A program made the position numbers and the translations under genes. The notes under the pieces are model-generated. The model was not told the DNA's origin, made no database searches, and worked only from the letters and a program-made list of their open reading frames with translations. This document shows positions 6,990-36,214 of a stretch of 41,987 nt of DNA, piece after piece. How positions within the stretch are numbered: the first letter of the stretch is position 1; the number at the start of each line of letters is the position of its first letter. Origin of the DNA: Gammaproteobacteria bacterium (GTDB lineage Bacteria; Pseudomonadota; Gammaproteobacteria; GCA-002705445; GCA-002716945); assembly GCA_965656575.1 (NCBI GenBank), contig CBFHLA010000002.1, forward strand, positions 3,817 through 45,803. Reading direction: 5' to 3'.

Positions 6990-7029
6990 ATTTATCTCTA
7001 TAAACGTTCTTAATTGCTGCTATTATATT

Positions 7030-7048
7030 GATAATGATTCTCATTTGC
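7030..7048. promoter_or_regulatory. Fur box 1 in the divergent receptor/exbD promoter
   Basis: GATAATGATTCTCATTTGC matches the 19-bp Fur consensus GATAATGATAATCATTATC at 15/19 positions (counted by hand). It belongs to a 16-nt direct repeat tgataatgattctcat (7029-7044 and 7058-7073). Confidence 0.7.
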
Positions 7049-7058
7049 AATAGTTAAT

Positions 7059-7077
7059 GATAATGATTCTCATAATT
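7059..7077. promoter_or_regulatory. Fur box 2 in the divergent receptor/exbD promoter
   Basis: GATAATGATTCTCATAATT matches the Fur consensus at 15/19 positions. It lies 29 bp from box 1 and ends 53 nt upstream of the exbD ATG. Confidence 0.7.
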
Positions 7078-7129
7078 AATTAGATTATTATGTGTTTAAA
7101 ACATTACTATTTTAATTTAGAGTATCCAA

Positions 7130-7516
7130 ATGACTAGGATTAGCCTTACACCTGTTATCGATGTAGTGTTCATACTGCTTATTTTTTTTATGTTAGCTTC
7201 AAATTTTAATAAGATTGGAGAGATAGATATGGATATGACAAAAGAGACTAACTCAGTAAGTAAGGAAGACATTAAGTTAATTGAATTATTAATCAGACAA
7301 GATGAGACAGTAATTAGTGAAGGAAAAATTTATGAGGACGATGAACTTGTTACAATGATCAAACATCTTACTAAAGATAAACCTAAGTATTCAATCATAC
7401 TTACCTCAAAAGAAGACGTTACTTATCAAAGGTTTTTATATTTGATGAATTTCCTTAAAAATAATGAAATTAGTAATATTAATATTGGATTAAAAACTAA
7501 TGCGACTAAAAATTAA
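7130..7516 (+). CDS. exbD: ExbD/TolR biopolymer transport protein (copy 1)
   Basis: 128 aa with an N-terminal LTPVIDVVFILLIFFMLA single-TM signature followed by a periplasmic domain. Confidence 0.85.
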   Translation: MTRISLTPVIDVVFILLIFFMLASNFNKIGEIDMDMTKETNSVSKEDIKLIELLIRQDETVISEGKIYEDDELVTMIKHLTKDKPKYSIILTSKEDVTYQRFLYLMNFLKNNEISNINIGLKTNATKN

Positions 7517-7898
7517 AGATAAAAAAGAATATGATGATGATGGTTTGCTACCTTTAGTAAATATAATTTTTCTACTGCTTATATTTTTTATGATTGCAGG
7601 TGTAATTGAAAAGAAGATTGTAAGAGATAATCTTGAACTGCCCTCAGCTGAACTTAGCCGCTTCGAGAATAAAGAGGTGACAAAAATATATATAGACAAA
7701 GATAATAATTATTTTCTTAATGATAAAGTTACAAGTAATGAAAATATCATTATCTACATTCAAGATAAAAAGATTAAAGAAGTAATTTTAATAGCAGACA
7801 AATCCTTACTTATAAATGATATAAGCAAATTATTAAACAATCTCCATAAAAATAATATAAAAAATATAAAACTCTTATCGAATAGAAATGCAAACTGA
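7500..7898 (+). CDS. exbD: ExbD/TolR biopolymer transport protein (copy 2)
   Basis: 132 aa with LLPLVNIIFLLLIFFMIAG. Overlaps copy 1 by 17 nt. Confidence 0.8.
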   Translation: MRLKIKDKKEYDDDGLLPLVNIIFLLLIFFMIAGVIEKKIVRDNLELPSAELSRFENKEVTKIYIDKDNNYFLNDKVTSNENIIIYIQDKKIKEVILIADKSLLINDISKLLNNLHKNNIKNIKLLSNRNAN

Positions 7899-8448
7899 TC
7901 AACTAAATAAATACATACTCATATCAATACTGATTCATTCAGTATTCTTACTATCGTTTAAAAATGCTTACATACAAAAAGACATAAGCCAGATAGGTGA
8001 GCAGGGTATGCAAATTCAAATGGTATTAATAAAAGATACCTTAGATGATGTTCAAGAGGATCAGTCAGAGCTAAGTAAAGAAAAAGAAACAATTAAAAAT
8101 AAAGAGCAAGAACAACAGGCAGTATTTGATAACCGTCTTCAAGGCGACAAAGCTGAGAAAATCTATCAATCATATTATGGTGTAATAAGAAATATTTTGG
8201 ATTCTAATAAAAAATATCCGCTATTATCATTACAGCGTAGACAAGAGGGGACTCCTATTGTTGAATTTACAATACTAAAAAATGGAGAGGTTACTAATTT
8301 AAATCTAGTCTCATCTGGTTACCGACTACTAGACAGGGAAGCACAAAAAATCGTCATTAAATCATCGCCCTTTCCACCAATACCTGAATCAGTCGGTAAA
8401 AATAGTATTGATTTAAGGATACCAATTAATTTTAGTCTTCAGCGCTAG
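7888..8448 (+). CDS. tonB: TonB family energy transducer
   Basis: 186 aa with an N-terminal TM segment (YILISILIHSVFLL) and an E/K/Q-rich spacer. The C-terminal TonB domain reads YPLLSLQRRQEGTPIVEFTILKNGEVTNLNLVSSGYRLLDREAQKIV..SPFPPIP. Overlaps exbD2 by 11 nt. Confidence 0.8.
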   Translation: MQTDQLNKYILISILIHSVFLLSFKNAYIQKDISQIGEQGMQIQMVLIKDTLDDVQEDQSELSKEKETIKNKEQEQQAVFDNRLQGDKAEKIYQSYYGVIRNILDSNKKYPLLSLQRRQEGTPIVEFTILKNGEVTNLNLVSSGYRLLDREAQKIVIKSSPFPPIPESVGKNSIDLRIPINFSLQR

Positions 8449-14325: not shown

Positions 14326-15660
14326 CTACATTGTTTCTTTGAATTCTATAATTTTACCTATAGGTTGAGAAATGATGTCATCCTCTTGCATAACAACATT
14401 GCCTCTCACAATAGTGTGTGTTGGCCAACCTTTTACCTTCATACCATCATATGGTGTCCATTTACTCTTTGAACGTTGTTGATCGTTTGTAATAATCATT
14501 TCTTTATTCATATCTACAATTGTAAAGTCAGCATCATAACCTTCTTGAATTCTGCCTTTGCCAGAGATTTTATGAACCCTTTCTGGACCAGTACTCCATA
14601 AGCTAACAAGTTTACTTAAAGAAAGTTTGCCGTTATTTACATGGTTTAACATTATTGGAACCAACGTTTGTACACCAGGTGTGCCGCTTGGTGATTTAGG
14701 ATAAGATGCAGATTTCTCATCTAAAGTATGTGGGGCATGGTCTGATGCAATGATGTCAACTATATTATTATTGAGTGCATTCCATAAAGCTTCCTGATGA
14801 TATTTTTCTCTTATAGGAGGATTTTGTTGAGCAAGTGTTCCTAAATTTTCATAACATTCAGGGGCATTAAGTGTTAGGTGGTTTGCCAAAAGCTCGACAC
14901 TTGCTACATCTTTATTCCTTGCAAGAAACTCCATTTCTTCACTAGTGGTTATATGCAAAATATGAACTCTTCTTTTATATTTACGAGCAAGATTTACAAC
15001 TCTCGTGGTAGCAGATAAGCAACTTTCTGGTGAACGCCATTTGCAATGCATCGCAACATCGTTACTAGAGCCTAAGATAGATGCAAAATTATTCATCATA
15101 ATCATTTGATCTTCCGCGTGAACGGCAATCACACGTCTACCATTTGAAACAACTGATTCAACTTCCTCATCTGTTGCTGTCATCAAGTCGCCAGTGCTTG
15201 CGCCCATGAAAATCTTTATTCCACAGACTCCTTTGAGATTTTCCCATTCAGACAAGTTTTTAGATGTTCTCATGGTGCCACCTAAATAAAAAGCATAATC
15301 AGTCCATGCTTCTTTGGATGCTCTGCTTAATTTATCTTCAATTGTTTCAGGTGTGATAGTGAGTGGGTTTGTATTCGGCATTTCAAATATTGAAGTTACT
15401 CCACCTAAAACTGCAGCTAGCATTCCTGATGCAAGGGTCTCCTTGCCTTCTAGCCCAGGCTCACGAAAATGTACTTGAGAATCAATAACACCAGGCAGTA
15501 TTATTAAATTCTTACAATCAATTGTCTGCTCAGTATCATAATTTTTATCTGATATAAGTGATATTTTCTCATTTTGGACATAAACATTTGTAGAGACAAG
15601 TGTATTTTTGATCATTACACGACCATTTTTAAGACATAAACTATATGGATGATTTGACAT
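14326..15660 (-). CDS. pyrC: dihydroorotase (long, type I/allantoinase-like cyclic amidohydrolase)
   Basis: 444 aa with DSQVHFREPG, GIKIFMGASTGDL, AVHAED, ILHITT and ASDHAPH metal-ligand blocks. Confidence 0.75.
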   Translation of the reverse strand: MSNHPYSLCLKNGRVMIKNTLVSTNVYVQNEKISLISDKNYDTEQTIDCKNLIILPGVIDSQVHFREPGLEGKETLASGMLAAVLGGVTSIFEMPNTNPLTITPETIEDKLSRASKEAWTDYAFYLGGTMRTSKNLSEWENLKGVCGIKIFMGASTGDLMTATDEEVESVVSNGRRVIAVHAEDQMIMMNNFASILGSSNDVAMHCKWRSPESCLSATTRVVNLARKYKRRVHILHITTSEEMEFLARNKDVASVELLANHLTLNAPECYENLGTLAQQNPPIREKYHQEALWNALNNNIVDIIASDHAPHTLDEKSASYPKSPSGTPGVQTLVPIMLNHVNNGKLSLSKLVSLWSTGPERVHKISGKGRIQEGYDADFTIVDMNKEMIITNDQQRSKSKWTPYDGMKVKGWPTHTIVRGNVVMQEDDIISQPIGKIIEFKETM

Positions 15661-15713
15661 TCTATAAATATGCTATCATTTTAATATTAAATATGCATAA
15701 TACTCTTACACAT

Positions 15714-16097
15714 ATGCAGAAAATACTCGATAATTTTGGAATTACTGTCTCTTCAATATGTGCAATACACTGTATATTGTTACCATTGATGTTGATACTA
15801 TCACCATATATAGAATTAGCATTTTTTACATCTCATGAATTCCATGAAACTCTCCTTTACTTCATCCTGCCTACATCGTTACTTGCATTTATAATTGGTT
15901 GCAGAAAACACAATGATGACATAGTGAAACTTGGAGGTATATGTGCAATTTTTGTTCTACTTATCGCAATCAGCTTACATGATTTCAATGAAGCTTTATC
16001 AATCATACTAACTTTATTTGCTAGTACATTATTGATATTTACACATCTCAGAAATAGATCTTTATGCCTAAGTGAGCATTATTCTTGTCATAAATAG
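15714..16097 (+). CDS. MerC-domain small membrane protein
   Basis: MQKILDNFGITVSSICAIHCILLPLML plus three further TM segments. I prefer the ATG at 15714 (or 15693), because the track start at 15645 overlaps the divergent pyrC start. Confidence 0.55.
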   Translation: MQKILDNFGITVSSICAIHCILLPLMLILSPYIELAFFTSHEFHETLLYFILPTSLLAFIIGCRKHNDDIVKLGGICAIFVLLIAISLHDFNEALSIILTLFASTLLIFTHLRNRSLCLSEHYSCHK

Positions 16098-16121
16098 TGA
16101 TCTCTCGGCTAGATTATTAGA

Positions 16122-17009
16122 CTAATATTGAATAGGTGTTAACAATACTTGGAATGGTCCACTACCTACAGAATATGTTGCTGCTTTTGCAGGGCCTTCA
16201 TCACAAGAATCAGGTGCATTCTGCCATATAGATGAACCTGTACTTACATTAAAACTCATATTGAAGCCTCTAGTGTCTTTATCAACGACTACAGGTGTTC
16301 CAAATTCTTGCATACCAAACATTTTTGCACCAGCTGCGGCTTCTACTGCATTAGAAGCTAGTTCATTGTTAGCATTTAATAAGTATGCATACATAGTGTT
16401 TCCACTCGCGAATGATTCACTCGCAGTGCCTTCATAGTCATCGCCACCTACATTAAAGTTTGGAAGCGTTGCTGCAAATTCACCTGCTGTAGTCTGTGAT
16501 GTGCTACATGTCATAGATATACATGCACTCTCATCACCTGATGCATTTCTTGTTGAACAATAAATAGCACCTGGTTCAGCAGCTCCAACACCTTGCGAAT
16601 CTCCTCGCGCATCTGCGTCGAAAGTAATGCTTTGTTTGATCAGAAACTCATTTTTGAAAATCATTATGCCGTGAGTATAAATGCCCACTGGTGGTCTAGT
16701 AACATTTGATGTCAATGCAACATTTGATGATGTGGACGTAACTCGTACTACTTCACCAGCTGATGCATTCATAGTTTGAAAACAATTACTCAAATCATAT
16801 TCCACTCCATCTGCTGGCACTGTTGGCTGTGCAGTACAAAGCCATTTTTCATATAATGTAATGCCATAAGATTCAGGTTCAGACATACAGCTGTCTCCCA
16901 CTGGTAGTGTTGTTACTCCAGAGGTAACAGTACATGCATTAGCGTATACTTTAGACTGAAAACTAAATGACATAATTAATGAGAATGAAATTATAAATAA
17001 CTTTTTCAT
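16122..17009 (-). CDS. secreted hypothetical protein, 8 Cys, Ser/Thr/Gly/Ala/Asn-rich (candidate cargo of the adjacent barrel)
   Basis: Sec signal peptide MKKLFIISFSLIMSFSFQSKVYA|NA. It contains 8 cysteines and S/T tracts (RVTSTSSNVALTSNVT, TCSTSQTT). Its start lies 1 nt after the stop of the barrel gene. I recognise no family. Confidence 0.6.
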   Translation of the reverse strand: MKKLFIISFSLIMSFSFQSKVYANACTVTSGVTTLPVGDSCMSEPESYGITLYEKWLCTAQPTVPADGVEYDLSNCFQTMNASAGEVVRVTSTSSNVALTSNVTRPPVGIYTHGIMIFKNEFLIKQSITFDADARGDSQGVGAAEPGAIYCSTRNASGDESACISMTCSTSQTTAGEFAATLPNFNVGGDDYEGTASESFASGNTMYAYLLNANNELASNAVEAAAGAKMFGMQEFGTPVVVDKDTRGFNMSFNVSTGSSIWQNAPDSCDEGPAKAATYSVGSGPFQVLLTPIQY

Positions 17010-17010
17010 A

Positions 17011-17919
17011 CTAGAATCCAGATGCCGTTATAGCAAATCCGCCCCCACCTCTAACTTTAACAATATTATTTTCTCTTCTAACCTTTTCATACATTCTCTC
17101 AGAATTAACTTTACCAAAGGTGTATGCATTTTTTGAAACTGTGAATATATTTGGTCCCATTTTTCTCTCATTGCAGCACAGGATATAATTTAATTTAATA
17201 AATCCGTTATAAGAATTAGTAGTACTATCATCTTGCATACCAGTTTCAACAGATAGTCTTGATGTTGGCTCCATATATAAACTGAACATCTCACCATGCC
17301 TTATGTTTAATGTCTCATTATTCCATTGGTATTTTTTATAATATACTTTTGCCCATGGAAGATAAGGAAGTAGCGCACCTATTTCTGCATCATAACCACC
17401 CGCTGCAACTTCAGGAGCACCATTGACGTGATGGATTTCGGACATTGCCTCATACAAATTAATGTTAACATCGAAAACTGATGATTTCATTTCAAAACCC
17501 AAACCTGTTCTAGTATGACCTGTGTTAAATTCATGATCATAAAAAATATTTATACCATAGATACGGGTCATCTCAGAATTCATCGTCCTATATACAAGTC
17601 CAGTATTTAGAGTTTCATTACTATCAAAGGTTGAATATGATATTTGAGTTAATATTTTGTTGTACTCGTTACCAGTTAATTCAAAGAGTGAAATAGCTCT
17701 AAAAGTTGGTTTTGAATCTTCACCCGCACGTGTTTCAATTTCTATTAATCTGAGACTAGATAAATTATCTTTTGCCCAAGATTCAATAGTCGAATCTCCA
17801 TAGGAAAAAGCATTTTCAATTATATTTTGTTTAACTTGATTTAGTGCTTGACTCGCTTCACCAGCATAGCCCAGAGATGTCATCAAAATAAACGGTAACG
17901 CTAATAATTTTTTCCCCAT
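17011..17919 (-). CDS. inverse-autotransporter (intimin/invasin) beta-domain protein without passenger
   Basis: Signal peptide MGKKLLALPFILMTSLGYA|GEA. The blocks IYGINIFYDHEFNTGHTRTGLGFEMKSSVFDVNINLY, GYDAEIGALLPYLPWAKVYYKKYQW and MYEKVRRENNIVKV parallel the intimin beta-domain and linker as recalled. The protein ends ...GGGGFAITASGF, an OMP-like terminal Phe. Confidence 0.65.
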   Translation of the reverse strand: MGKKLLALPFILMTSLGYAGEASQALNQVKQNIIENAFSYGDSTIESWAKDNLSSLRLIEIETRAGEDSKPTFRAISLFELTGNEYNKILTQISYSTFDSNETLNTGLVYRTMNSEMTRIYGINIFYDHEFNTGHTRTGLGFEMKSSVFDVNINLYEAMSEIHHVNGAPEVAAGGYDAEIGALLPYLPWAKVYYKKYQWNNETLNIRHGEMFSLYMEPTSRLSVETGMQDDSTTNSYNGFIKLNYILCCNERKMGPNIFTVSKNAYTFGKVNSERMYEKVRRENNIVKVRGGGGFAITASGF

Positions 17920-17955
17920 TAGATGATAGTAATATAAATCAGTCTTATGTAAAGA

Positions 17956-18729
17956 CTATTGATCAACATTTTCCATGTTTTTTATGTTATCTAGGGCTGG
18001 TTTATATGTGCTATCTATTTCAAGAGCATGCTTAAACATTTTTTTAGCAGCGATATTGTCTTTAGTTGCATAGTATGCAATACCCAAATTATTGTATAAC
18101 TCTTTTGACGTTACATCCTTATTTAAAGCTTCTTCTAGTACTTCCACGCACTTTTTATACTTTGTATTCTTTAGATAATAATTAGAGATATTGATATAAG
18201 GCATGGGATCATTTGAAGTTAATTCCAAAACTTTTAAGTAATGCTTCTCTGCTTCGTTAGGATTAATATTGTTGTATATATTTGCGAGATTATTGTGGGC
18301 TACAGATGAGTTAGCATCTAAAGACAAAGCTTTTTTATAATTTTCTACCGCTTTTTCAAAATTTTTAAGATGTGAATAGATTACTCCTAAACTATAGAAT
18401 GACTGAAAGTTTTTTTTATCTAGCTTAATAGCTCTTTTATGTTCCTGTATTGCAAATTCGAGATTATTACTTTGATAAAGTATGTTTCCATAGTTGCTGT
18501 GGTAAACAGAAATTTCTGGTTGAAGTTCAATCGCATTGATTATGTGACTCCTAGCGTCATCTAGTTTATTTTCTACAAGGTAGATTAAAGACAATAAATG
18601 ATAAGCATCACTATTATTTTTATCATGGACTAAGATTTTATTATAAATAGATTTTGCATCATCTAGTTGATTTCTATTTTGAAGGTCCATAGCTTCTTTC
18701 ATTGCTTGATCTATTAAAAACTCAACCAT
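17956..18729 (-). CDS. tetratricopeptide-repeat protein (cytoplasmic, no signal peptide)
   Basis: 257 aa with about six consecutive 34-residue TPR units (for example AYHLLSLIYLVENKLDDARSHIINAIELQP and SFYSLGVIYSHLKNFEKAVENYKKALSLD). Overlaps the upstream gene by 8 nt. Confidence 0.8.
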   Translation of the reverse strand: MVEFLIDQAMKEAMDLQNRNQLDDAKSIYNKILVHDKNNSDAYHLLSLIYLVENKLDDARSHIINAIELQPEISVYHSNYGNILYQSNNLEFAIQEHKRAIKLDKKNFQSFYSLGVIYSHLKNFEKAVENYKKALSLDANSSVAHNNLANIYNNINPNEAEKHYLKVLELTSNDPMPYINISNYYLKNTKYKKCVEVLEEALNKDVTSKELYNNLGIAYYATKDNIAAKKMFKHALEIDSTYKPALDNIKNMENVDQ

Positions 18730-20146
18730 ACTTTTTCTCTTGAAGTTGTTCCTTTAATTTTATTATCACAGATTTCCAGTCGCCAGGAATTTCTTGCCTA
18801 AACATAATAACACTTTTATACCATGGTGATGTGTTTCTGTGTGTCAACTCCCATCTCCAATTTGGAACGCAGGGTAACATTAAGATTGTCTTTTTATTTA
18901 ATGCTCCAGCCATATGCGCAACTAGATGGTCAACAGTTATAACTAAATCTAAATTCGATATAATATTTGCAAGTTCATTTAAATCCGAATAGCTTCCTAG
19001 TGTTTGAAAAATGTGGGATTTATTATCTTGGGTGACGTAGGGGTCTAGACTGATTACATTGTGTTGGTCAGAAAATACTCCTTCAATTAACGTATGGCTT
19101 ATGCTTTCATCGTCATGCGCATTTGAATTTCTATCTGTCTCCAACACCAGACCAATGTTTAATTTTTCTGAAACATTGAAATTTAGATTAGTATTGATAA
19201 ATTCAATATATGGATACTCTTGATTCATCTCATTAGGGTTAGCTTCTAATACCTTCATCAAAGAGCTGATATGGACAAAATAATCATGTTCAGGGATATC
19301 ATTTACCGTAACAGTACTGTGTAACCATTTCTGAGCTGACATTAATGGCATTGCTTGGTCACTACACTGCAAGATAATCTGACAATCATCTTTAGCAAGC
19401 TCTCTTGCAAATCTTATAAAATTAATTAAATTTGCATCCGAACCTTCATCAACTATAAGTAATTTCTTATTTTGTAAACTCTGGCCAGTCCACTCTTTTT
19501 TAAAACCGTCGGTTGATTCTTTTGTAATCTTTTTTCGCCACTCATACTCGCGCCAACCATTTTTATAATCTCCAATTAATAAATAACATAGTCCAAGATT
19601 GAGATGAGCTTCAGCATAATCAGGCATTATTTCAATGCATTTAAGAAATGACTTTATTGATAAATCAAATTGTTTTTTTTCTTGATAAACAATACCTAAT
19701 AATAGATAAGCTGCAACATGATCGGGTGATAGTTCTATAGTTTTATAAAATGACGAGATAGCGTCATTATATTTCTTTATTTTTCTATATGACTCTCCCA
19801 AATAAAAATGTACTTGCGCAATTTTATCATTTAATGAAATTGCGCCCTTAAAAGCTTCAACTGATTTAACGTATTCTTTAGATGCGCTGTATGCACATCC
19901 TAAGGTTACATAATATCCAGGATTTTTATTATTTAATCTAATAGATTTATCTACTAATTTTATAGATTCGTCAAAGTCTTGATTGTAAAGTCTGATTGAT
20001 GACAATATATGATAGGCATCAGGATTAAGATCATCTTTAATAATTTCCTTGCAAATCGATTCTGCTTCAGAAAATTTGTTTTGACCCAAGAAATTTATTG
20101 CTTTGTTTAATTCTTGCTGAGTTTTATCTTTATTCTCATTACTCAT
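18722..20146 (-). CDS. TPR-repeat protein fused to a GT9 (heptosyltransferase)-like glycosyltransferase domain
   Basis: 474 aa. The N-terminal ~200 aa are TPR repeats. The C-terminal domain (KLLIVDEGSDANLINFIRFA ... DLVITVDHLVAHMAGALNKKTILMLPCVPNWRWELTHRNTSPWYKSVIMFRQ) matches the DxVxHLAGAxG...WRW...SPWY...FRQ pattern I associate with TPR-GT9 proteins. Confidence 0.6.
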   Translation of the reverse strand: MSNENKDKTQQELNKAINFLGQNKFSEAESICKEIIKDDLNPDAYHILSSIRLYNQDFDESIKLVDKSIRLNNKNPGYYVTLGCAYSASKEYVKSVEAFKGAISLNDKIAQVHFYLGESYRKIKKYNDAISSFYKTIELSPDHVAAYLLLGIVYQEKKQFDLSIKSFLKCIEIMPDYAEAHLNLGLCYLLIGDYKNGWREYEWRKKITKESTDGFKKEWTGQSLQNKKLLIVDEGSDANLINFIRFARELAKDDCQIILQCSDQAMPLMSAQKWLHSTVTVNDIPEHDYFVHISSLMKVLEANPNEMNQEYPYIEFINTNLNFNVSEKLNIGLVLETDRNSNAHDDESISHTLIEGVFSDQHNVISLDPYVTQDNKSHIFQTLGSYSDLNELANIISNLDLVITVDHLVAHMAGALNKKTILMLPCVPNWRWELTHRNTSPWYKSVIMFRQEIPGDWKSVIIKLKEQLQEKKYG

Positions 20147-20209
20147 ATTATGAAGTGCATATTATCCCATGCATATTTAAATAGCTAATTTATAAATTCA
20201 ATAAAAAAA

Positions 20210-20227
20210 GGAGAGCACCTGCTCTCC
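20210..20227 (-). terminator. rho-independent (bidirectional-looking) terminator after the DUF1326 gene
   Basis: ggagagc-acct-gctctcc forms a 7-bp GC-rich stem flanked by A7 (20203-20209) and T5 (20228-20232). It lies 25 nt downstream of the DUF1326 stop and upstream of the TPR-GT operon start. Confidence 0.7.
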
Positions 20228-20251
20228 TTTTTATGTTTTCCAAAAGACAAC

Positions 20252-20854
20252 TTATGGAGCGTAAGAGAATGGGCCTGAAAGTCCAACTCTGTCAGGTTTT
20301 GGACTCCAATTCTGTCCGAAATCTGTATAAGATTGTTTATTTGTTTTATTCACCTCAACTGGGAAGCCAGGGTTAATAGCTAATGGGTGGTATTCGCATT
20401 TTGCTACATTACCATTGCCATCTTCTACCGCATCCATATCCCACTCGCCAGCACCCTCTACTTTAAGAGTTTTTTTATTTCCTGATATATCACATGTAAT
20501 AGCTGCTTTTTTTACACCCATCACTTCACCAACAAGACTAGCTATTACACCTAAATGTCCGCCATGCTTACCGCCATACAGTTCCTCTAATGCGGCAGCT
20601 TGCTCATCAGTTGCATTTTCGTCTATGTATAGTGCAATTTTAAAACCGCCTTCAGTAAGTTGTGGACCAGGTGCATGTAACCAGATAGAAACTTTAAGTC
20701 CATCGAGTGTTACATCATTTAAGTGTCCCTTTTTTATATCCCAGACCAACATAGCCTCACAAAAACCTTCAGTAGGTGTTTGTAGGTATAGACAAGGACA
20801 CATAATATCGCAGTTGCAATTTTCTGCGTAATCTCCTTCTAAACTCCAGCTCAT
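20252..20854 (-). CDS. DUF1326 domain protein
   Basis: 200 aa with the N-terminal signature W.L.GDY.ENCNCDIMCPC. Confidence 0.65.
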   Translation of the reverse strand: MSWSLEGDYAENCNCDIMCPCLYLQTPTEGFCEAMLVWDIKKGHLNDVTLDGLKVSIWLHAPGPQLTEGGFKIALYIDENATDEQAAALEELYGGKHGGHLGVIASLVGEVMGVKKAAITCDISGNKKTLKVEGAGEWDMDAVEDGNGNVAKCEYHPLAINPGFPVEVNKTNKQSYTDFGQNWSPKPDRVGLSGPFSYAP

Positions 20855-21013
20855 TATTAACTCCCTAAAATTAATTTATGATTAATGTTAATACAAACTA
20901 CACTATAAATACACAAATTATCAAACATATAAGTAAGCCTTAATATTCTTATGAATATAGAATAATTGTTAAATACATTATATTTTTGATAGATTATTAG
21001 CAGGGGTAAATTC

Positions 21014-22654
21014 TTGAACAAATCAGAGTTAGAACATTGGTATAGTGATAGCGTGCCGTGCAGATCAGCATGTCCTGCTGATACAGATATTCCTGGATAC
21101 CTAGAAGCGATATATCGTGGAGATTTTGAGTCAGCCTACAACATAAACTTCAATGATAATTTTTTTCCTGAAGTTCTTGGGAGAGTGTGTTCTAGACCAT
21201 GTGAAAAAGCATGTAGGCATGGAGTTAATGATAATGGCGATTCTGTATCAATTTGTTTTTCAAAAAGAGCTGCAGGCAAATATTCAAATAATAAACCTAA
21301 ACTTCAAAATAAACTTAAAGCAACGAGTAAAGATATACTCATTATAGGCGGAGGTGTTGCAGGTTTAGCTGCTGCTGCAGAATTAAGACGTTTTGGTCAC
21401 AAGGTGACAATGTATGAAAGACACAAATCGTTGGGCGGTATGCTCAATCAAGGAATACCCGTTTTTAGATTACCAAGAAAAATCATAGAAAAAGAAATTG
21501 AACAAATTATAAACCTTGGGATTAAGGTCAAACTAAACACATCTGTTTCAGATCAAGATGAAATAGAAATGCTTGCAAAAAAATTTGATGTAGTTGTCTG
21601 TGCAATGGGAACACTTAAGCCTAATCTTTTAGATGAAAAATTTAAAAAAAGTCTTTATGTAGAAGATGGACTAGATTTTTTATTAAGAGTTAACGAAAAG
21701 AATGAAAAATATGTTGGGCAAAATGTAATAGTCATAGGTGGTGGTTATACATCAATGGATTGTGCGAGAACAGCTCTTAGACTGGGTGCCAAAACTGTTA
21801 AGACATTTTATAGAAGAGAAGAAGGTGATTTAGAAATTCTTCCTGGTGAATTAGAGGAATTAATTAATGAAAAAGGTAAGATGGTATTCAGTGCTAGACC
21901 ATTCAGACTTATTGAAAACAAGAAAAAACTAAAATATCTTGAGTTAGTTAAAACCAAAACCTCGAAGCATAATTCAAAACTTATAGATATACCGAATAGT
22001 AAGTTTAAAATAAAAACTGATCATATAATTCTGGCCATAGGTCAGAAGCAAGAAATTAAAATAAAAAATTCATCTAAAAATATTTTCTATGCAGGCGATT
22101 TCAAACTAGGAGCTTCTACACTGATTAATGCAATTGGAGATGCCAAAAAAACTGCAGCAGATGTAAATCAATATTTAATGAAAAAAAATTATGACAAAAG
22201 TGATTATAGTATTAGCAAAAACGCTAAAACAAATAGATCTCTAAATAGAAACTATATACCTATTACAGAAATGCGACTGAGAGATATATCGAAAAGAACA
22301 TTTAAATCTGAAGTTGAGCTTGGATTCAATAAAACTGAAAGTAAAAATGAATCATCAAGATGTTACCTCTGCCATTATAAATTTGAAATTAATAATAGCT
22401 TATGTGTTCTATGTGATGAATGCTTATTAGTAAGACCTGTAAATGAATGTATCAAAGAAATATCATCAAAAACTACTGACTCAAAAGGCAGAGTAGAAGT
22501 TAATAAAATCGACCCTGGTAATTCTCACGGTATTTATCATGGTGAGTTATATATAGACCCTAAAGTATGTGTGAGATGTGGGGAATGTGAAAAAGCATGT
22601 CCTACAGGTGCTATTTCACTAACCAAAGTGAGTAAAATTAATGCGTCAACCTAA
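21014..22654 (+). CDS. GltD-like NAD(P)H:FAD/FeS oxidoreductase subunit with a C-terminal 2x[4Fe-4S] ferredoxin domain
   Basis: 546 aa from a TTG start. The N-terminal GltD-type cluster region reads CRSACPADTDIPGYL...VCSRPCEKACRHG. It has two Rossmann motifs (IIGGGVAGLAAAAEL and VIGGGYTSMDCA) and C-terminal CYLCHYK..CVLCDEC and CVRCGECEKACP motifs. Confidence 0.75.
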   Translation: MNKSELEHWYSDSVPCRSACPADTDIPGYLEAIYRGDFESAYNINFNDNFFPEVLGRVCSRPCEKACRHGVNDNGDSVSICFSKRAAGKYSNNKPKLQNKLKATSKDILIIGGGVAGLAAAAELRRFGHKVTMYERHKSLGGMLNQGIPVFRLPRKIIEKEIEQIINLGIKVKLNTSVSDQDEIEMLAKKFDVVVCAMGTLKPNLLDEKFKKSLYVEDGLDFLLRVNEKNEKYVGQNVIVIGGGYTSMDCARTALRLGAKTVKTFYRREEGDLEILPGELEELINEKGKMVFSARPFRLIENKKKLKYLELVKTKTSKHNSKLIDIPNSKFKIKTDHIILAIGQKQEIKIKNSSKNIFYAGDFKLGASTLINAIGDAKKTAADVNQYLMKKNYDKSDYSISKNAKTNRSLNRNYIPITEMRLRDISKRTFKSEVELGFNKTESKNESSRCYLCHYKFEINNSLCVLCDECLLVRPVNECIKEISSKTTDSKGRVEVNKIDPGNSHGIYHGELYIDPKVCVRCGECEKACPTGAISLTKVSKINAST

Positions 22655-24719
22655 GTTTAAAAATATAAATGTCACGTGCCCGCATGATTGCCCTGATACC
22701 TGTTCTCTAGTAGTTACTGTTGATAAAACATCTGGCAAAGCAGTTAAGTTAAAAGGAAATGATAAACATCCCATTACCAAAGGGTTTCTATGCAATAAGG
22801 TAAATCATTACTTAGACTTGGTTTACAACAAGAATAGAGTTTTATATCCACATGTAAGAATTGGACCAAAAGGACAGAAAGGTAAATTCAAAAGAGTTTC
22901 TTGGGATTATGCTTTAAAACTCATAACAAAAAATTTAAATGAAAATATTAAAAAATATGGCCCTGATTCCATACAGCCTTATTCATATTCCGGAACACTC
23001 GGAATGTTGGGCTACTGGGGAATGTCAGAAAGATTTTGGAATAAATTAGGAGCAGCCCGTTTAGGCAGAACGATATGTATTGCAGCAGCATCCACTGCAG
23101 GGATATATACTTATGGAGCCGCGTGTGGTCCTGCAATTGATGAAGTTCCCAAAAATGATTACATAATATTGTGGGGTACAAATGTTGCATCAACGCATGT
23201 ACACATGGTTCCGTTTCTAGAGGAAGCTAAAAAAAACGGAGCTAAAATTGTTTGTATAGATCCAAGAGAAACCCGAACAAGTATCATGAGTAATTGGCAC
23301 ATCCAGCCTAAACCGGGAACTGATTCTGCATTAGCACTTGGTATCATGAATGAAATAGTTAAAAACAATTTACATGACAAATCATTTTTAAAAAAACATA
23401 CAACTGGTCATGAAGAGTTTCTAAAAAAAGAATTGCCTAAATATACTCTCAGTAAAGTTTCTAAGATCACTGGGATAAAACAATCTGAGATAAAACAGTT
23501 AGCTCATGAATACGCAAAAGCCAAAAGATCATACATAAGACCTAATTATGGGCTTAATAGGCATCGAAACGGCGGCATGATGACCAGAACAATAATGTTA
23601 CTCCCAGCAATTACTGGGGCTTGGAAATATAAAGAGTCTGGTTGTTTTGTTGGCTCTATTGAAGAAATGTGGAATGTTGATTTACAAAAACTTCAAAGAC
23701 CAGATTTGCTAGATGGTAAAGCTCCCAGATCTATAAACATGGTTCAGATAGGAAATGCCTTAAATGATAAAAAACTTAGTCCACCTATTAAGCATTTATT
23801 TGTTTGGAATTCTGATGTTGCCAATTGCACTCCAGATAGCAGTAATGTGCGAAAAGGCCTTCAAAGAAAAGATTTATTTACAGTAGTGCATGATACTTTT
23901 TGGACAGATAGTTGCATGTATGCTGATGTTGTTCTTCCAGCTGACACCCAATTGGAACACACAGACCTTCATGCACCTTACGGGCATTATTATTTCAGTT
24001 TGACCCAACAAGCGATCAATCCATTAGGTGAGAGTAAATCTAACCAAGATCTGTTTAGAGAATTAGCAAAGTACATGGGTTACAAGGAAGCATGCTTCAA
24101 AGAAACAGATGAGAAAATGATAAAAAACATGATTGATGCAAAGCATAATCCACTGTTTAAAGGAGTTAGTTATGAAAAACTCAAAAAAAATGGATGGGTC
24201 AAAGGTGATGTAAATAATCCAAGAAGAAACTATCTTAAGAAAGGCTGGCCTACTAAAGATAAGAAGATACAAATCTATTCAGAAGATACAAAAAAAATCG
24301 GTCTAGGCCCATATCCATCTTACACAGAAGAATTTAAAAAATCAGAAATTAAGAAAAAATATCCTATTCAAATATTAAGTCCTGCAACGCATCAATTTAT
24401 AGGGAATTCATTTGTGCCAGTTGAAAGACTAAGAAATATGGCATCTCGACCAACTATTGAAATTTCATCCGCAGATGCCAAGAAAAGAAAAATTAAAGAT
24501 GGAGATTTATGTAAAGTGTTTAATGATGTAGGTGAAACTTATGCCAATGCAATTATTAAAGATACAATGCTTGAAGGTGTGGCATCTACACAAAAACAAT
24601 ACAGAGGTTCATTAGTTAAGAATGGTCTTAATGCTAATGCATTAAACTCACAAGAACTTACAGATATGGGAGATGGCCCAATTTTCTATACGGTGATGGC
24701 TCAAATCAAAAAAGTTTAA
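22641..24719 (+). CDS. cytoplasmic molybdopterin (bis-MGD) oxidoreductase catalytic subunit, substrate unknown
   Basis: 692 aa with an N-terminal [4Fe-4S] motif C-x3-C-x3-C...C (TCPHDCPDTCS...FLCNK) and no twin-arginine signal. The probable Mo-ligand region is RTICIAAASTAGIYTYG. Overlaps the upstream gene by 14 nt. Confidence 0.75.
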   Translation: MRQPKFKNINVTCPHDCPDTCSLVVTVDKTSGKAVKLKGNDKHPITKGFLCNKVNHYLDLVYNKNRVLYPHVRIGPKGQKGKFKRVSWDYALKLITKNLNENIKKYGPDSIQPYSYSGTLGMLGYWGMSERFWNKLGAARLGRTICIAAASTAGIYTYGAACGPAIDEVPKNDYIILWGTNVASTHVHMVPFLEEAKKNGAKIVCIDPRETRTSIMSNWHIQPKPGTDSALALGIMNEIVKNNLHDKSFLKKHTTGHEEFLKKELPKYTLSKVSKITGIKQSEIKQLAHEYAKAKRSYIRPNYGLNRHRNGGMMTRTIMLLPAITGAWKYKESGCFVGSIEEMWNVDLQKLQRPDLLDGKAPRSINMVQIGNALNDKKLSPPIKHLFVWNSDVANCTPDSSNVRKGLQRKDLFTVVHDTFWTDSCMYADVVLPADTQLEHTDLHAPYGHYYFSLTQQAINPLGESKSNQDLFRELAKYMGYKEACFKETDEKMIKNMIDAKHNPLFKGVSYEKLKKNGWVKGDVNNPRRNYLKKGWPTKDKKIQIYSEDTKKIGLGPYPSYTEEFKKSEIKKKYPIQILSPATHQFIGNSFVPVERLRNMASRPTIEISSADAKKRKIKDGDLCKVFNDVGETYANAIIKDTMLEGVASTQKQYRGSLVKNGLNANALNSQELTDMGDGPIFYTVMAQIKKV

Positions 24720-28298: not shown

Positions 28299-29165
28299 TT
28301 AATTTAATAAAGATAAGAGGTATTTACCATAATCGCTTTTTTTAAGTTTTTCAGCAAGAGATTCAAGATCCTCAGCAGATATAAATCCTTTGTTAAATGC
28401 AATTTCCTCTAGGCAGGCAATCTTTTGCCCATTTCTTTTTTCAATAGTATAAACAAAATTACTAGCATCTATGTATGATTGATTAGTGCCTGCATCCATC
28501 CATGTAAAATCTCTCCCAAGGATTTCGCTGTACAAATTGCCTGATTTCATATACTCAATATTTACATCGGTAATTTCTAGTTCACCTCTGTCAGATGGCT
28601 TAATAGTCTTTGCTATGTATGATGAATTGGAGTCATAAAAATATAATCCTGTAACAGCTAGATTTGATGATGGGTTTTTGGGTTTTTCCTCTAAGCTAAT
28701 TACTTTTCTTTTGCTATCAAGTGAGCACACTCCAAATCTTTCGGGGTCCGGAACTTCATATGAAAATAATGTATTAGTATTAGATAAGTTAGCATTTATT
28801 AATTTTTCAGAAAATCCACTTCCATAAAAAATATTATCGGCAAGCATGAGGGCGCAAGGATTGTTATTGAGAAATTTTTCTCCTATAGTCAGTGCCTGAG
28901 CTATTCCCTCTGGCTTTGGTTGTGTTTCAAATGAAAAGTTTATCCCCCACTGACTTCCATCATCTAAAAGTCTTTGAAATATATCACTATCTTTAGGTGT
29001 TGATATAATCAATATATCTTTTATACCTGACAACATTAAAGTGCTTATAGAATAATAAATCATTGGTTTGTCGTACACTGGTAGCATGCACTTAGTTGTT
29101 GCTAAAGTTAATGGGTATAATCTAGTCCCACTGCCGCCAGCAAGTATGATTCCTTTTCTATTCAT
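28299..29165 (-). CDS. rfbA: glucose-1-phosphate thymidylyltransferase
   Basis: 288 aa with KGIILAGGSGTRLYPLT, the sugar-binding core, and an EKP..P.SNLAVTGLYFYD block. Confidence 0.9.
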   Translation of the reverse strand: MNRKGIILAGGSGTRLYPLTLATTKCMLPVYDKPMIYYSISTLMLSGIKDILIISTPKDSDIFQRLLDDGSQWGINFSFETQPKPEGIAQALTIGEKFLNNNPCALMLADNIFYGSGFSEKLINANLSNTNTLFSYEVPDPERFGVCSLDSKRKVISLEEKPKNPSSNLAVTGLYFYDSNSSYIAKTIKPSDRGELEITDVNIEYMKSGNLYSEILGRDFTWMDAGTNQSYIDASNFVYTIEKRNGQKIACLEEIAFNKGFISAEDLESLAEKLKKSDYGKYLLSLLN

Positions 29166-29368: not shown

Positions 29369-29441
29369 TGCCGGAAAGTGGGATCGAACCACTGGCCTTC
29401 GCGTTACGAATGCGATGCTCTGCCAACTGAGCTATTCCGGC
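29369..29441 (-). tRNA. tRNA-Thr (anticodon CGU)
   Basis: The reverse complement reads GCCGGAATAGCTCAGTTGGCAGAGCATCGCATTCGTAACGCGAAGGCCAGTGGTTCGATCCCACTTTCCGGCA. It folds as a cloverleaf with a 7-bp acceptor stem, a GCTC/GAGC D-stem, anticodon loop TTCGTAA and a GGTTCGATCC T-arm. CCA is not encoded. There is one A-C mismatch at 31-39. Confidence 0.9.
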
Positions 29442-32514: not shown

Positions 32515-33948
32515 ATGATGAATATAACACCTGTAATACTATGTGGAGGGAGCGGTACTAGATTGTGGCCTCTGTCTAGAGCTGATTATCCTAAACAATT
32601 CATTAAACTTGAAGATAATGTCACGTTATTTCAAAAAACCATTAATAGAATTAAATTGCTTGCAGAAAAAAATAACAGTATTAAACAAATTATAATCCTA
32701 ACTAATGAGTCCCATCGGTTTCTTATAATAGAGCAGTTAAAGAATATAAAAATAAATGTAAAAATACAGATTATATTAGAACCATGTTCGCTTAATACTG
32801 CACCTGCTCTTACATTAGCAGCAAATGCATCGCCTGATTCAACGTTAATGGTTTTTCCATCTGATCAACACATAGAAAATGACAAGATTTTTGTTGATTG
32901 TATGCAAGATTCAATAAATGAAATTAAAGATAAGTCGATTTTTGTCTTTGGAGTTAAACCTAAATCAGCTGAAGATTCATATGGCTATATTTTATATAAA
33001 GGAAGTAAAAAAATAAAATCAGTAACAGAGTTTATAGAAAAGCCAAAAGTAGAAGTTATAAAAAAAATCCTAATAAATAAAAAATGTCTCTGGAATATGG
33101 GAATTTTTGTTTTAAATGCTAAAACATGGCTGAATGCTATTCGCATCACGAACAAATCAATATATGAAAATGTAACTAAATCTTGGAAGAAAAATAGCAT
33201 TGATAATTTATTTATACGTCCATCTAATTCAGACTATTCAAAAGCTACATCGAAGTCTATTGATTATGCAGTAATTGAGAAAGCCATATCATTAGGCATT
33301 GAATTAAAAGCTATGGAAATAAAAACTAATTGGTCTGATATAGGTCAGCATAAAGCCTTAGAAAGGTTATTCGAAAAGACTAAAAAAAATAATATTTTTT
33401 TAGGTGATGTTATTGAGGAAGGTACAAAAAATACAACAGTCTTTGGCTCAAACAGGCATGTATCATTACTCGGTGTTGAAAATCTAATCGTAATTGATAC
33501 AAAAGATTCATTACTAGTTGTTAATAAAGAATCTTCATCATCAATGAGGGAGCTAATAAAAAAAATAAATAAAAAACGCAAAGAATTACTACTTGAACAA
33601 TCAGTTGTTCATAGGCCATGGGGGACTTATGAAACAATCCTTCAAGACAAAAGCTGCAAGATCAAGAAAATTATTGTTAATCCGAACTCACAGTTATCTT
33701 ATCAATCTCACAAATATAGAAGTGAGCATTGGATTGTACTAAAGGGCGTTGCAACTATATTAAAAGAAGGGAAAGAATTCAAGCTATGTGCAGATGAGTC
33801 AACATTTATTAGTTCCGGGCAAAAACATATGTTAATGAATAATCAAAAACAGACATTAGAAATCATTGAAGTACAAACGGGGAAAAAGTTGTCAGAAAAA
33901 GATATTATAAGATATCAAGATATTTATGGTAGATTAAAAAGAAGATAA
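32515..33948 (+). CDS. manC: mannose-1-phosphate guanylyltransferase / mannose-6-phosphate isomerase
   Basis: 477 aa with an N-terminal PVILCGGSGTRLWPLSR and a C-terminal cupin domain (HRPWGTYE, SYQSHKYRSEHWIV). Confidence 0.9.
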   Translation: MMNITPVILCGGSGTRLWPLSRADYPKQFIKLEDNVTLFQKTINRIKLLAEKNNSIKQIIILTNESHRFLIIEQLKNIKINVKIQIILEPCSLNTAPALTLAANASPDSTLMVFPSDQHIENDKIFVDCMQDSINEIKDKSIFVFGVKPKSAEDSYGYILYKGSKKIKSVTEFIEKPKVEVIKKILINKKCLWNMGIFVLNAKTWLNAIRITNKSIYENVTKSWKKNSIDNLFIRPSNSDYSKATSKSIDYAVIEKAISLGIELKAMEIKTNWSDIGQHKALERLFEKTKKNNIFLGDVIEEGTKNTTVFGSNRHVSLLGVENLIVIDTKDSLLVVNKESSSSMRELIKKINKKRKELLLEQSVVHRPWGTYETILQDKSCKIKKIIVNPNSQLSYQSHKYRSEHWIVLKGVATILKEGKEFKLCADESTFISSGQKHMLMNNQKQTLEIIEVQTGKKLSEKDIIRYQDIYGRLKRR

Positions 33949-35682: not shown

Positions 35683-36214
35683 ATTCTATAACAAATTGTG
35701 TGGCATGGTATAAGTCGTCAAATAATTCAATATTTGGCATTTCTTCACTAATTTTTTTACCATTACCTGTCAGTACTCCTAAGGGATTACAACCAGATGA
35801 TAATGCAGCTTTCATGTCCCTTGGAGAATCTCCAATTGCAAATACCTCAGATAAATTTATGTTCAATCTTTCTGCGATCTCTAAGTACATTCCTGGATTA
35901 GGTTTTCTAAATTGAGTTTTATGGTCTGGATGATCATAACAATAATATGTAACAAATATATTACCAGCATGTTTCTTACATAAATCAATTAGCTTCTTAT
36001 GAATTTCAAGAAGATTGTAATATTTTATAATTCCTCTGCTTACACCAGATTGATTAGAGATTATTATGATTTTATAATCATGTTTAGATAGCAACGAGAT
36101 TGCTTCTAAACTTTTTGGGATAGGTTCCCATTCGTCAGCAGTTTTTATGTATGAGGATGAATCATAATTGATAACACCATCTCTGTCTAAAATAATGTAT
36201 TTATCACTATGCAT
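35654..36214 (-). CDS. gmhB: D-glycero-beta-D-manno-heptose 1,7-bisphosphate 7-phosphatase (HAD-IIIA)
   Basis: ILDRDGVIN (HAD motif I), IISNQSG, and GDSPRD. I prefer the ATG at 36214 ([13 protein letters not shown]) over the TTG at 36244, which would overlap glyQS by 38 nt. Confidence 0.8.

Follow-up and report, generated by a model that had tools for sequence, protein, structure and literature searches.

The 474-aa protein encoded at the head of a four-gene cluster in the analysed stretch of DNA (the window, 41,987 nucleotides) is probably a clade-specific, TPR-guided protein of GT9 fold with a remodelled active site, which acts on a secreted cargo before its export and is not a canonical ADP-heptose transferase. 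The cluster lies on the minus strand, as do all of its features located below, in the order 474-aa TPR plus GT-B gene, 257-aa TPR gene, 302-aa barrel gene and 295-aa secreted-protein (cargo) gene, and it is possible that the four together constitute a dedicated glycosylation module. A sequence-only reading of the window had proposed a four-gene module for glycosylation and surface display; the fold, the co-transcription and the co-occurrence of the genes within the clade agree with that proposal, but catalytic residues are replaced, and barrel/cargo pairs elsewhere occur without the TPR-GT gene.

The 474-aa protein consists of a TPR domain of about six repeats (residues 1-207; 19526..20146), identified from Pfam TPR families and AF2 helices, and a GT-B domain of GT9 fold (residues 208-474; 18722..19525 including the stop codon), identified by Foldseek and hhalign with PF01075 marginal. 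The AF2 models had pLDDT values of 93 and 89, and that of the 474-aa protein (93) contains 12 TPR-type helices across residues 3-207, in line with the five to six TPR units counted in the sequence-only reading, followed by an alpha/beta domain. OGT, SPINDLY and FlmG are likewise single cytoplasmic polypeptides with a TPR superhelix at the N-terminus and a GT-B domain at the C-terminus; of these, the protein glycosyltransferases SPINDLY and OGT were matched by the full-length model over the TPR as well as the GT region. In enzymes of this type the protein acceptor is bound through the TPR domain, and the sugar goes to Ser or Thr. The second protein (17956..18729) is TPR-only and cytoplasmic, is 76–80% identical across the clade, and is translationally coupled to the TPR-GT gene through an 8-nt overlap. 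Neither TPR protein has a hydrophobic N-terminus, in agreement with the earlier statement that both lack a signal peptide, the maximum 12-aa hydropathy being 0.38 for the 474-aa and 0.25 for the 257-aa protein vs 2.24 for the barrel and 2.42 for the cargo. Public annotation of the 474-aa protein is “tetratricopeptide repeat protein” only, and because of this name the GT domain has been overlooked in public records.

Assignment of the C-terminal domain to GT9 came chiefly from structure and from profile alignment. Foldseek placed TibC first (4rap, E = 3e-6), followed by WaaF (1psw), 3tov and WaaC (2h1h), and these top matches were all GT9, with E values of 3e-6 to 1e-4 and TM scores of 0.54–0.62 (0.62 for 3tov). 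Global hhalign against a three-sequence GT9 alignment (WaaC/WaaF/WaaU) gave a probability of 98% and E = 7e-13, with an unreliable middle section; the N-terminal motif could be placed in this global mode only, local hhalign runs with WaaC or WaaF as single sequences extending no further than a 36–44-residue donor motif. The match to PF01075 (Glyco_transf_9) was marginal, with 22.3 bits for the full-length protein and 23.8 bits for the C-domain alone vs a cutoff of 22, and covered only residues 388-421, or approximately 34 of 247 model positions. The NCBIfam heptosyltransferase I/III models scored approximately 20 bits vs cutoffs of 170–185, phmmer of the C-domain against PDB sequences matched no glycosyltransferase, a C-domain profile search reached WaaF at E = 0.7 only, and with the full-length alignment as profile, TPR proteins crowded out other matches. 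The earlier designation of this domain as a GT9 transferase stands for the GT9-type GT-B fold and fails for the key catalytic residues, which are replaced.

The replacement was seen across the clade, for which 48 sequences were compared with 48 more distant canonical TPR-GT9 relatives. At the catalytic-base position in the beta1-alpha1 loop (Asn239, codon 19430..19432, aligned by hhalign with WaaC D13, the position of TibC D110), 47 of 48 clade sequences have Asn whereas 47 of 48 canonical relatives have Asp; a natural variant, P0048, retains Asp. Position 347 (codon 19106..19108) is Glu in 46/48 of the clade vs Arg or Lys in 47/48 of the relatives; it corresponds to the conserved basic position that follows the first C-lobe strand of GT9 enzymes, and is the probable equivalent of WaaC K192 and TibC K230, an equivalence drawn from the motif [KR]-x-[WI]-P-x3-[WFL]-x2-L and not from superposition. 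In the donor-binding motif (D406-H407-L408-V-A-H411; 18914..18931; D-T/S-G-x-x-H in GT9), hhalign showed that D406 and H411 are kept (WaaC D261 and H266) while WaaC T262-G263 has become H407-L408; the clade's donor loop reads His-Leu/Ile/Val in place of Thr-Ser/Ala, the canonical relatives keeping Thr. Among the other replaced residues, His407 occurs in 47/48 and Asn429 in 48/48 clade sequences; W430-R431-W432, W442-Y443 and the RQ residues are retained. In TibC, alanine substitutions at the two equivalent positions (D110A and K230A) abolish or largely diminish heptosylation (PMC4358343). Loss of both the Asp and the basic residue therefore argues against ordinary GT9 catalysis, but the substituted positions are conserved and not degraded, and such strong conservation, shared by the remaining pocket residues, is more in keeping with a site that binds a ligand or catalyses a reaction than with one that is dead.

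These data bear directly on an explanation that we consider unlikely, namely that the protein no longer transfers sugar and that its GT9-fold domain and the TPR partner form a cytoplasmic holdase or targeting scaffold, which maintains the export competence of the cysteine-rich cargo or of the barrel precursor. A pseudo-enzyme of this kind would be consistent with the loss of catalytic base and phosphate-binding basic residue, at positions where the TibC mutants lose all or most activity, with the TPR domains being the most conserved parts (mean identity across the clade is 76% for the TPR domain of the 474-aa protein, the highest of any part of it), and with the weak similarity of both TPR proteins to LcrH/SycD-type TPR secretion chaperones, which falls under the curated cutoffs. 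It would not account for the strong conservation of the substituted positions, D406, H411 and the WRW, WY and RQ residues, nor for homologous barrel/cargo pairs that manage without TPR proteins. Moreover, Sec substrates normally need no dedicated TPR chaperones.

The four open reading frames represent real genes and not chance frames, as shown by the conservation of all four in 12 related genomes or contigs. The sequence-only reading had given the first two as 18722..20146 (474 aa) and 17956..18729 (257 aa), overlapping by 8 nt and lying 36 nt from the barrel gene, and all of this was confirmed; the overlap is ATGGTTGA, and the barrel gene and 295-aa gene are 1 nt apart. An intrinsic terminator hairpin (20205..20232; 12 pairs, 5 GC, with a T-run) lies just past the stop codon of the DUF1326 gene, and the terminator previously located at 20210-20227 is the core of this stem. 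Past this hairpin, which ends the upstream DUF1326 gene, the cluster begins as a separate transcription unit; RNA-seq contig depth drops there 10–16-fold (approximately 179 to 11 in X3 and 128 to 11 in X2), with one contig in X4 reading through. Between the hairpin and the TPR-GT gene is a 58-nt AT-rich leader and putative promoter region (20147..20204). In 15500-21200 no Rfam family reached its gathering score, and the three weak matches all fell over the terminator hairpin.

In four metatranscriptomes there are contigs that run across the TPR-GT/TPR junction, two contigs (X1 record 2 and X4 record 27) span the 36-nt gap between the TPR and barrel genes, and no terminator was found between the four genes; the TPR genes and the barrel gene appear co-transcribed. 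Within the 36-nt spacer (17920..17955) are a weak hairpin (AGTCTT/AAGACT) as well as promoter-like hexamers (TTTACA-16-TACTAT), and barrel contig depth is often approximately 2–5 times that of the TPR genes, suggesting that the barrel pair may have an additional promoter to itself. No metatranscriptome contig matched the cargo at 90% identity or more, as would be expected because the cargo is divergent.

Each of the 12 related loci examined had the four genes together, with TPR-GT identity as low as 49–53%. Outside the clade, TPR-GT was found at none of 80 barrel loci of other lineages, 27 of which had at least 1.6 kb of upstream sequence, nor in three further barrel contexts, and the canonical TPR-GT9 relatives are solitary or in unrelated contexts. 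Thus the expectation that TPR-GT9 always travels with the barrel/cargo pair holds within the clade and not elsewhere. In Geomonas, a flagellin gene and flbT follow directly downstream of canonical relatives, which agrees with a protein-modifying role of the TPR-GT9 family at large. Two sequences, P0047 and P0035, look like GT-only versions; P0047 was rejected as an artefact, its assembly being riddled with frameshifts and its housekeeping genes fragmented as well.

Synteny in the clade spans the whole region including the flanking housekeeping genes, so co-occurrence alone is no proof of a functional link. An alternative explanation, somewhat unlikely in our judgement, could therefore be that the genes are unrelated neighbours, the TPR pair acting on another cytoplasmic or envelope substrate and the adjacency reflecting tight packing in a streamlined genome and inheritance as a block. 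This would be consistent with a window that is 93.5% coding with short same-strand gaps, with housekeeping flanks that are equally syntenic, with the different company kept both by the barrel/cargo pairs sampled elsewhere and by the canonical relatives, with a 36-nt gap that sits between the two gap-length modes and has promoter-like hexamers inside, and with the excess depth of the barrel contigs. However, that gap is crossed by transcript contigs in an interval free of terminators, and the Asn239-type subfamily was found in the barrel/cargo context only: the remodelled site and a place beside a barrel/cargo pair occur in this one clade only.

The product of the barrel gene (17011..17919) has 302 aa and a signal peptide and is an inverse-autotransporter beta-barrel without passenger (PF11924, E = 5e-27), which matched the invasin and intimin barrels at E = 1e-7 and 3e-6, stops approximately 18 residues past the Pfam model and has no Ig-like extension. 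Its family comprises 890 representative clusters, mostly of 280–350 aa, from hosts with 29% to 67% GC. The 295-aa cargo (16122..17009) is Sec-exported and fast-evolving; six of its Cys are invariant, and a GSGPF...Y strand is conserved at the C-terminus. Searches gave no known Pfam domain, no PDB relative by profile, no Ig/Big similarity by sequence and no repeats. A FimH match (E = 0.017) was dismissed as noise. The invariant Cys directly behind the signal peptide might point to a lipoprotein, but this interpretation was rejected, as there is no lipobox at positions -3 to -1 and an A-x-A signal peptidase I site is conserved. Cargo identity is 32–46% across the clade vs 76% for the TPR domain, which is so much more conserved that it is not following the variable surface of the cargo. 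Among distant barrel loci, 55 of 63 showed tight coupling of the barrel to a downstream gene, which was a cargo homologue in 26 of those. Barrel and cargo are thus a widespread, tightly coupled two-gene module resembling ZirT/ZirS. We tentatively suggest that the barrel/substrate pair is an ancient and widespread core to which the TPR pair was added in one lineage of marine Gammaproteobacteria only. The barrel and its coupled downstream gene, being self-sufficient and widespread, should be annotated as a module independently of the TPR genes.

The sequence-only reading had taken the 474-aa protein for an ADP-heptose O-heptosyltransferase like Aah or TibC, hyper-glycosylating Ser/Thr tracts of the cargo before export, and this we now consider very unlikely. 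It has in its favor the GT9 fold, for which TibC ranked first among the structural matches, a gene that adjoins and is co-transcribed with type V secretion genes, and a GmhB-like phosphatase gene in the window. That gene (35654-36244), which had been put forward as gmhB, is present but scores 170 bits vs a curated cutoff of 178 and is unlinked, lying 16 kb from the cluster beside glyS and plsC; no gmhA, hldE or canonical heptosyltransferase was found among the ten window genes scanned, and the cluster itself contains no sugar-donor biosynthesis gene. The Ser/Thr tracts had been offered as a hint of glycosylation, but neither they nor N-x-S/T sequons are conserved among cargo orthologues. AIDA-I and TibA passengers are repeat-rich, unlike the cargo, in which no repeat or known domain was detected. 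Added to these are the Asn at the D110/D13 and the Glu at the K230/K192 positions, and two structural elements of TibC that are lacking here, as described below.

The best explanation for the data as a whole, which we hold tentatively, is that a TPR-guided, remodelled glycosyltransferase modifies the substrate or the barrel precursor before Sec export. Transcription would start just downstream of the DUF1326 terminator and run through the TPR pair into the barrel/substrate module, and the 474-aa GT-B protein would pair with its 257-aa TPR-only partner. In the cytoplasm, the TPR surfaces may then retain either the still unfolded substrate before its export or the barrel precursor, and the remodelled GT domain would modify the retained protein using a donor or chemistry different from canonical inverting ADP-heptose transfer. 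The genes, their fold and active-site substitutions, the co-transcription and the distribution over lineages are observations, whereas the target and any transfer of sugar are inferred. A more specific proposal, and a doubtful one, is that the GT9-fold enzyme of the Asn239/Glu347/His407 clade was neo-functionalised, that after its recruitment to a place upstream of a ZirT/ZirS-like pair it switched donor or mechanism (examples would be a donor other than ADP-heptose, or base-independent or retaining-type transfer), and that it modifies the secreted protein in the cytoplasm with the second TPR protein as specificity adaptor. If true, a type Ve two-partner secretion substrate would for the first time have a TPR-guided modification system of its own, in an abundant lineage of marine bacterioplankton. 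To our knowledge, only two enzyme families, Aah/TibC and HMW1C-like, glycosylate type V secreted adhesins in the cytoplasm. A third route, TPR-guided and with a rebuilt GT9 site, would if it exists add to the known ways in which bacteria decorate surface proteins and provide an entry point to a very large, uncharacterised family of TPR-GT9 fusions.

Among known systems, the LPS heptosyltransferases WaaC and WaaF (GT9) share the fold and the C-terminal donor motif D-x-x-x-x-H, but they have no TPR domain, use a lipid-linked sugar as acceptor and keep D13, K192 and T262-G263, all replaced in the window clade. TibC and Aah, the bacterial autotransporter heptosyltransferases (BAHT), are similar in their GT9-type GT-B fold, cytoplasmic location and a gene adjoining that of a type V secreted protein. 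As a family they form a dodecameric ring and transfer heptose from ADP-heptose to the autotransporter passenger. They begin with a flattened beta-barrel domain where residues 1-207 of the 474-aa protein are all-helical TPR, they have the catalytic Asp and sugar-binding Lys that are Asn and Glu in the window clade, and their partner is a type Va AIDA-like beta-helix and not a type Ve two-partner system. The TibC Cys4 iron finger, inserted in the C-lobe, is formed by C339, C342, C358 and C370 (PMC4358343), whereas the GT domain of the 474-aa protein has three Cys only (255, 261 and 426) and no CxxC pair. Although Aah and TibC had been invoked as precedent for the same kind of enzyme, the protein is thus not a BAHT member. 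OGT and SPINDLY (GT41) have the same TPR plus GT-B architecture, but the structures nearest to the catalytic domain of the 474-aa protein are GT9 and not GT41. The ZirT/ZirS system likewise combines a PF11924 barrel with signal peptide and a following co-encoded substrate gene bearing its own signal peptide; it differs in that no TPR or GT genes are described for it and that its substrate has Ig-like domains in common with the extension of the barrel protein itself, whereas the window barrel is without any Ig-like extension and its cargo without Ig/Big similarity detectable by sequence. HMW1C and EtpC belong to a GT41-like family, serve a type Vb system and attach Asn-linked hexoses, whereas the N-x-S/T sequons of the window cargo are not conserved. 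The likeness to the window cluster lies in operon logic, a cytoplasmic GT-B enzyme being encoded with an outer-membrane translocator and a secreted substrate (PMC3012730). Finally, in FlmG, the Caulobacter flagellin O-glycosyltransferase, binding of the acceptor protein falls to the TPR domain and the choice of donor to the GT-B domain (PMC7591256; bioRxiv 10.1101/2022.03.25.485807). By architecture the 474-aa protein shares this two-domain logic, and its canonical relatives near flagellin and flbT in Geomonas extend the likeness, while the window clade is set apart by its place beside a barrel/cargo pair and by its remodelled active site.

Four genes on the minus strand encode, in order, a 474-aa protein that joins TPR repeats to a glycosyltransferase-like domain (TPR-GT; 18722-20146), a 257-aa TPR-only protein (17956-18729), a 302-aa barrel (17011-17919) and a 295-aa secreted cargo (16122-17009). 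The ORFs and sequence bear out the layout described by the sequence-only reading: the TPR genes overlap by 8 nt (ATGGTTGA), 36 nt (17920-17955) separate the TPR-only and barrel genes, and a terminator hairpin (20205-20232, minus strand) lies upstream, where it closes the DUF1326 gene (20252-20854). Barrel and cargo genes are 1 nt apart. Both TPR proteins lack a hydrophobic N-terminus, in keeping with the first note that they have no signal peptide; signal peptides are clear in barrel and cargo. Pfam identifies several TPR families in both TPR proteins and the inverse-autotransporter beta-domain PF11924 in the barrel (E = 5e-27), and matched no domain in the cargo. Coding sequence makes up 93.5% of the window, and same-strand gaps are bimodal (≤10 nt in 16 of 26, ≥69 nt in 7), with the 36-nt spacer intermediate. 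Convergent to the cargo gene is a gene for a MerC-family membrane protein (15645-16097), a position kept throughout the window clade, i.e. the close marine TPR-GT homologues; its start overlaps that of an opposite-strand dihydroorotase gene by 16 nt (15645-15660). Divergent from DUF1326, at 21014-24719, are genes for an Fe-S/flavin oxidoreductase (546 aa) and a molybdopterin oxidoreductase (692 aa), overlapping by 14 nt and 72-92% conserved in the clade. The sole tRNA gene of the window is tRNA-Thr (CGT; 29369-29441, minus strand).

Co-transcription of the TPR genes with the barrel gene holds, with contigs spanning both junctions. In four metatranscriptomes (X1-X4), Logan contigs with 90-99% identity to the window cover the TPR-GT, TPR-only and barrel genes; the junction of the TPR genes is spanned in all four runs (e.g. 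X3, 17972-18862) and the 36-nt spacer by two contigs (X1, 17835-18008; X4, 17905-18159). Depth is uneven between neighbouring genes, which argues that the contigs are RNA and not contaminating DNA. The terminator evidently works, since depth falls 10-16-fold at the hairpin (in X3 from 179 to 11); one X4 contig reads through it. DUF1326 has by far the deepest coverage, 128-309x compared with 5-40x for the cluster. Because coverage of the barrel gene often exceeds that of the TPR genes by a factor of about 2-5, and -35/-10-like hexamers with a predicted start on the barrel ATG lie in the spacer, an internal promoter may precede the barrel gene; shuffled sequence gave promoter-like matches at least as often as this region did. 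The spacer also holds a weak AT-rich hairpin (AGTCTT-TACAT-AAGACT).

The description of TPR-GT as GT9-like is correct at the level of fold, on the grounds of structure matches and a global profile alignment. The Glyco_transf_9 HMM does match, but marginally (22.3 bits, cutoff 22; residues 388-421 only), and NCBIfam models for heptosyltransferases reach about 20 bits where 170-185 are required. An AlphaFold2 model of the full-length protein, built from 46 homologues (pLDDT 93.3), places twelve TPR-type helices at residues 3-207 ahead of an alpha/beta domain, and by structure search matches the TPR plus GT-B protein glycosyltransferases SPINDLY and OGT. Modelled by itself (pLDDT 89.3), the C-terminal domain matches GT9 structures and little else: TibC (4rap, E = 3e-6), WaaF (1psw), WaaC and the Veillonella structure 3tov (TM 0.62). 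Global profile alignment to E. coli WaaC/WaaF/WaaU gave 98% probability (E = 7e-13).

Homologues of this domain fell into two groups, the window clade (about 57 marine-metagenome clusters at 49-89% identity, most of them about 470-479 aa long) and distant, canonical TPR-GT9 fusions (about 50 clusters, 24-33% identical, many phyla). When 48 sequences of each were aligned, the motifs that define GT9 catalysis switched cleanly between them. Canonical sequences have Gly at positions 236 and 238 (48/48 at both), against Ser/Ala/gap and Glu/Asp/Gly/Ala in the clade; at 239, Asp (47/48) is replaced by Asn (47/48, P0048 being the sole member to keep Asp); at 347, Arg/Lys (47/48) by Glu (46/48); at 407, Thr (44/48) by His (47/48); at 408, Ser/Ala (43/48) by Leu/Ile/Val (43/48); and at 429, Asp (36/48) by Asn (48/48). 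Asn239 aligns with WaaC D13, and D406-H407-L408...H411 with WaaC D261-T262-G263...H266; judged by motif pattern, position 347 is probably the counterpart of the K192 motif [KR]-x-[WI]-P. The catalytic base proposed for TibC is D110, and its K230 binds sugar; changing either to Ala abolished or largely diminished heptosylation (PMC4358343). A canonical heptosyltransferase, which the fold would fit, is therefore very improbable with these catalytic residues replaced. A non-catalytic, chaperone-like pseudo-enzyme would fit the same replacements and is improbable to a lesser degree: the new residues are conserved in the clade and the remainder of the pocket (D400, D406, H411, WRW, WY, RQ) is kept, so that the site looks rebuilt under selection rather than decaying.

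The sequence-only reading had proposed a four-gene module for glycosylation and surface display built around an Aah/TibC-like heptosyltransferase. Its fold, architecture and co-transcription stand; the Aah/TibC likeness is unsupported, since catalytic residues are replaced and TPR-GT is not one of the bacterial autotransporter heptosyltransferases. Membership in that family was rejected because TPR repeats take the place of its barrel and the GT domain has three cysteines only, none as CxxC. Orthologues at 31-35% identity do not retain the Ser/Thr tracts cited in the cargo (RVTSTSSNVALTSNVT and TCSTSQTT), nor are the cargo's five N-x-S/T sequons conserved. What the orthologues do have in common is six invariant cysteines, the motif TRPPxGxYTHG and a strand at the C-terminus, GSGPF-x-V-x-x-T-x-x-Y; this strand ends in an aromatic residue and resembles an outer-membrane beta-signal or donor strand. 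The supposed gmhB (35654-36244), adjoining glyS and plsC, does encode a GmhB-like HAD phosphatase, but one below curated cutoffs (170 bits on NF006506, cutoff 178; 81 on TIGR00213, cutoff 150) and 16 kb away. Genes for rmlA (28299-29165; 416 bits) and a mannose-1-phosphate guanylyltransferase/isomerase (32515-33948; 448 bits) also occur in the window outside the cluster, and none of these sugar-nucleotide genes adjoins it.

The four genes always occur together within the window clade, but not outside it. In ten species-level genomes and two further loci (L025 and L036), the order DUF1326, TPR-GT, TPR-only, barrel, cargo, MerC (opposite strand), dihydroorotase and deaminase is kept wherever the contig reaches far enough. 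Flanking housekeeping genes are equally syntenic, so the arrangement shows shared ancestry and not necessarily shared function. Across the ten genomes, identity to the window is highest for DUF1326 (92-97%), followed by dihydroorotase (about 80-82%, intact assemblies), the TPR-only protein (75-81%), barrel (69-77%) and TPR-GT (61-68%); the cargo, at 32-46%, is by far the fastest-evolving (neighbours 61-97%). Within TPR-GT the TPR domain is more conserved (76%) than the GT lobes (54-60%), and thus does not co-vary with the hypervariable cargo. L036 (GCA_038143675.1), whose 1.2-Mb contig suggests a streamlined genome, has most block genes fragmented, including PEP carboxylase and dihydroorotase, for which reason its apparent GT-only protein, P0047, was rejected as an assembly artefact.

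Outside the clade, canonical TPR-GT9 relatives in Pelagibacteraceae, Prochlorococcus, Geomonas, Undibacterium and Methylococcus are solitary among unrelated genes, with no barrel or cargo nearby. The barrel family is very large: clustering at 50% identity gives 890 clusters, and among the 150 best the majority are 280-350 aa long and stop where the barrel does. Behind each of three distant barrels (about 36% identity) comes a 291-341-aa gene, ≤13 nt away or overlapping, and two of these genes are genuine homologues of the cargo gene (E = 1e-12 to 1e-27); upstream is an HTH_3, PAS-cyclase or Crp-type gene and in no case TPR-GT. A metagenome scan with a barrel motif chosen to leave out the window clade returned 80 loci with 83 barrels (29-67% GC), 27 of them with 1.6 kb or more of sequence upstream. 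No ORF in any of the 80 loci matched the GT-domain HMM, nor either TPR protein by phmmer. A tightly coupled downstream ORF followed 55 of the 63 barrels with enough downstream sequence, 51 at gaps of -11 to +11 nt, and the cargo HMM matched 26. The proteins translationally coupled to these passenger-less barrels, from hosts of 29-67% GC, are secreted and 230-390 aa long; L049 carries two barrel/cargo pairs in tandem and L070 a barrel-cargo-barrel arrangement. Since distant loci couple barrel to cargo without TPR-GT, the conserved core is barrel plus cargo, to which the TPR pair was added in one lineage. TPR-GT could accordingly be an unrelated neighbour of the pair, which the equal synteny of flanking genes would allow; with the TPR and barrel genes co-transcribed, we consider this slightly less likely than the reading that we tentatively favor, a TPR-guided protein of GT9 fold, particular to this clade and with its active site remodelled, that would act on cargo or barrel before export.

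For the core, ZirT secreting ZirS and ZirU is a worked example of barrel-plus-substrate secretion (2016; PMC4943183). No repeat or known domain was detected in the cargo by Pfam and profile search. TibC and Aah heptosylate repeat-rich passengers, from which the cargo differs. In Geomonas, three canonical modules are fused in an ORF of 1,448 aa (L012, 1037-5383) and two in one of 990 aa (5387-8359); directly downstream come a flagellin gene and then flbT, and on the other side is a gene for a GT4-type transferase. One Undibacterium ORF, whose 5' end is open, runs to 3,466 aa (L013, 5-10405) and has at least six modules head-to-tail. The Geomonas arrangement recalls the TPR plus GT-B flagellin glycosyltransferase FlmG, and by this analogy lends support to the view that TPR-GT9 fusions, as a family, modify proteins; in FlmG the TPR domain binds flagellin and the GT-B domain sets donor specificity (PMC7591256; bioRxiv 10.1101/2022.03.25.485807).
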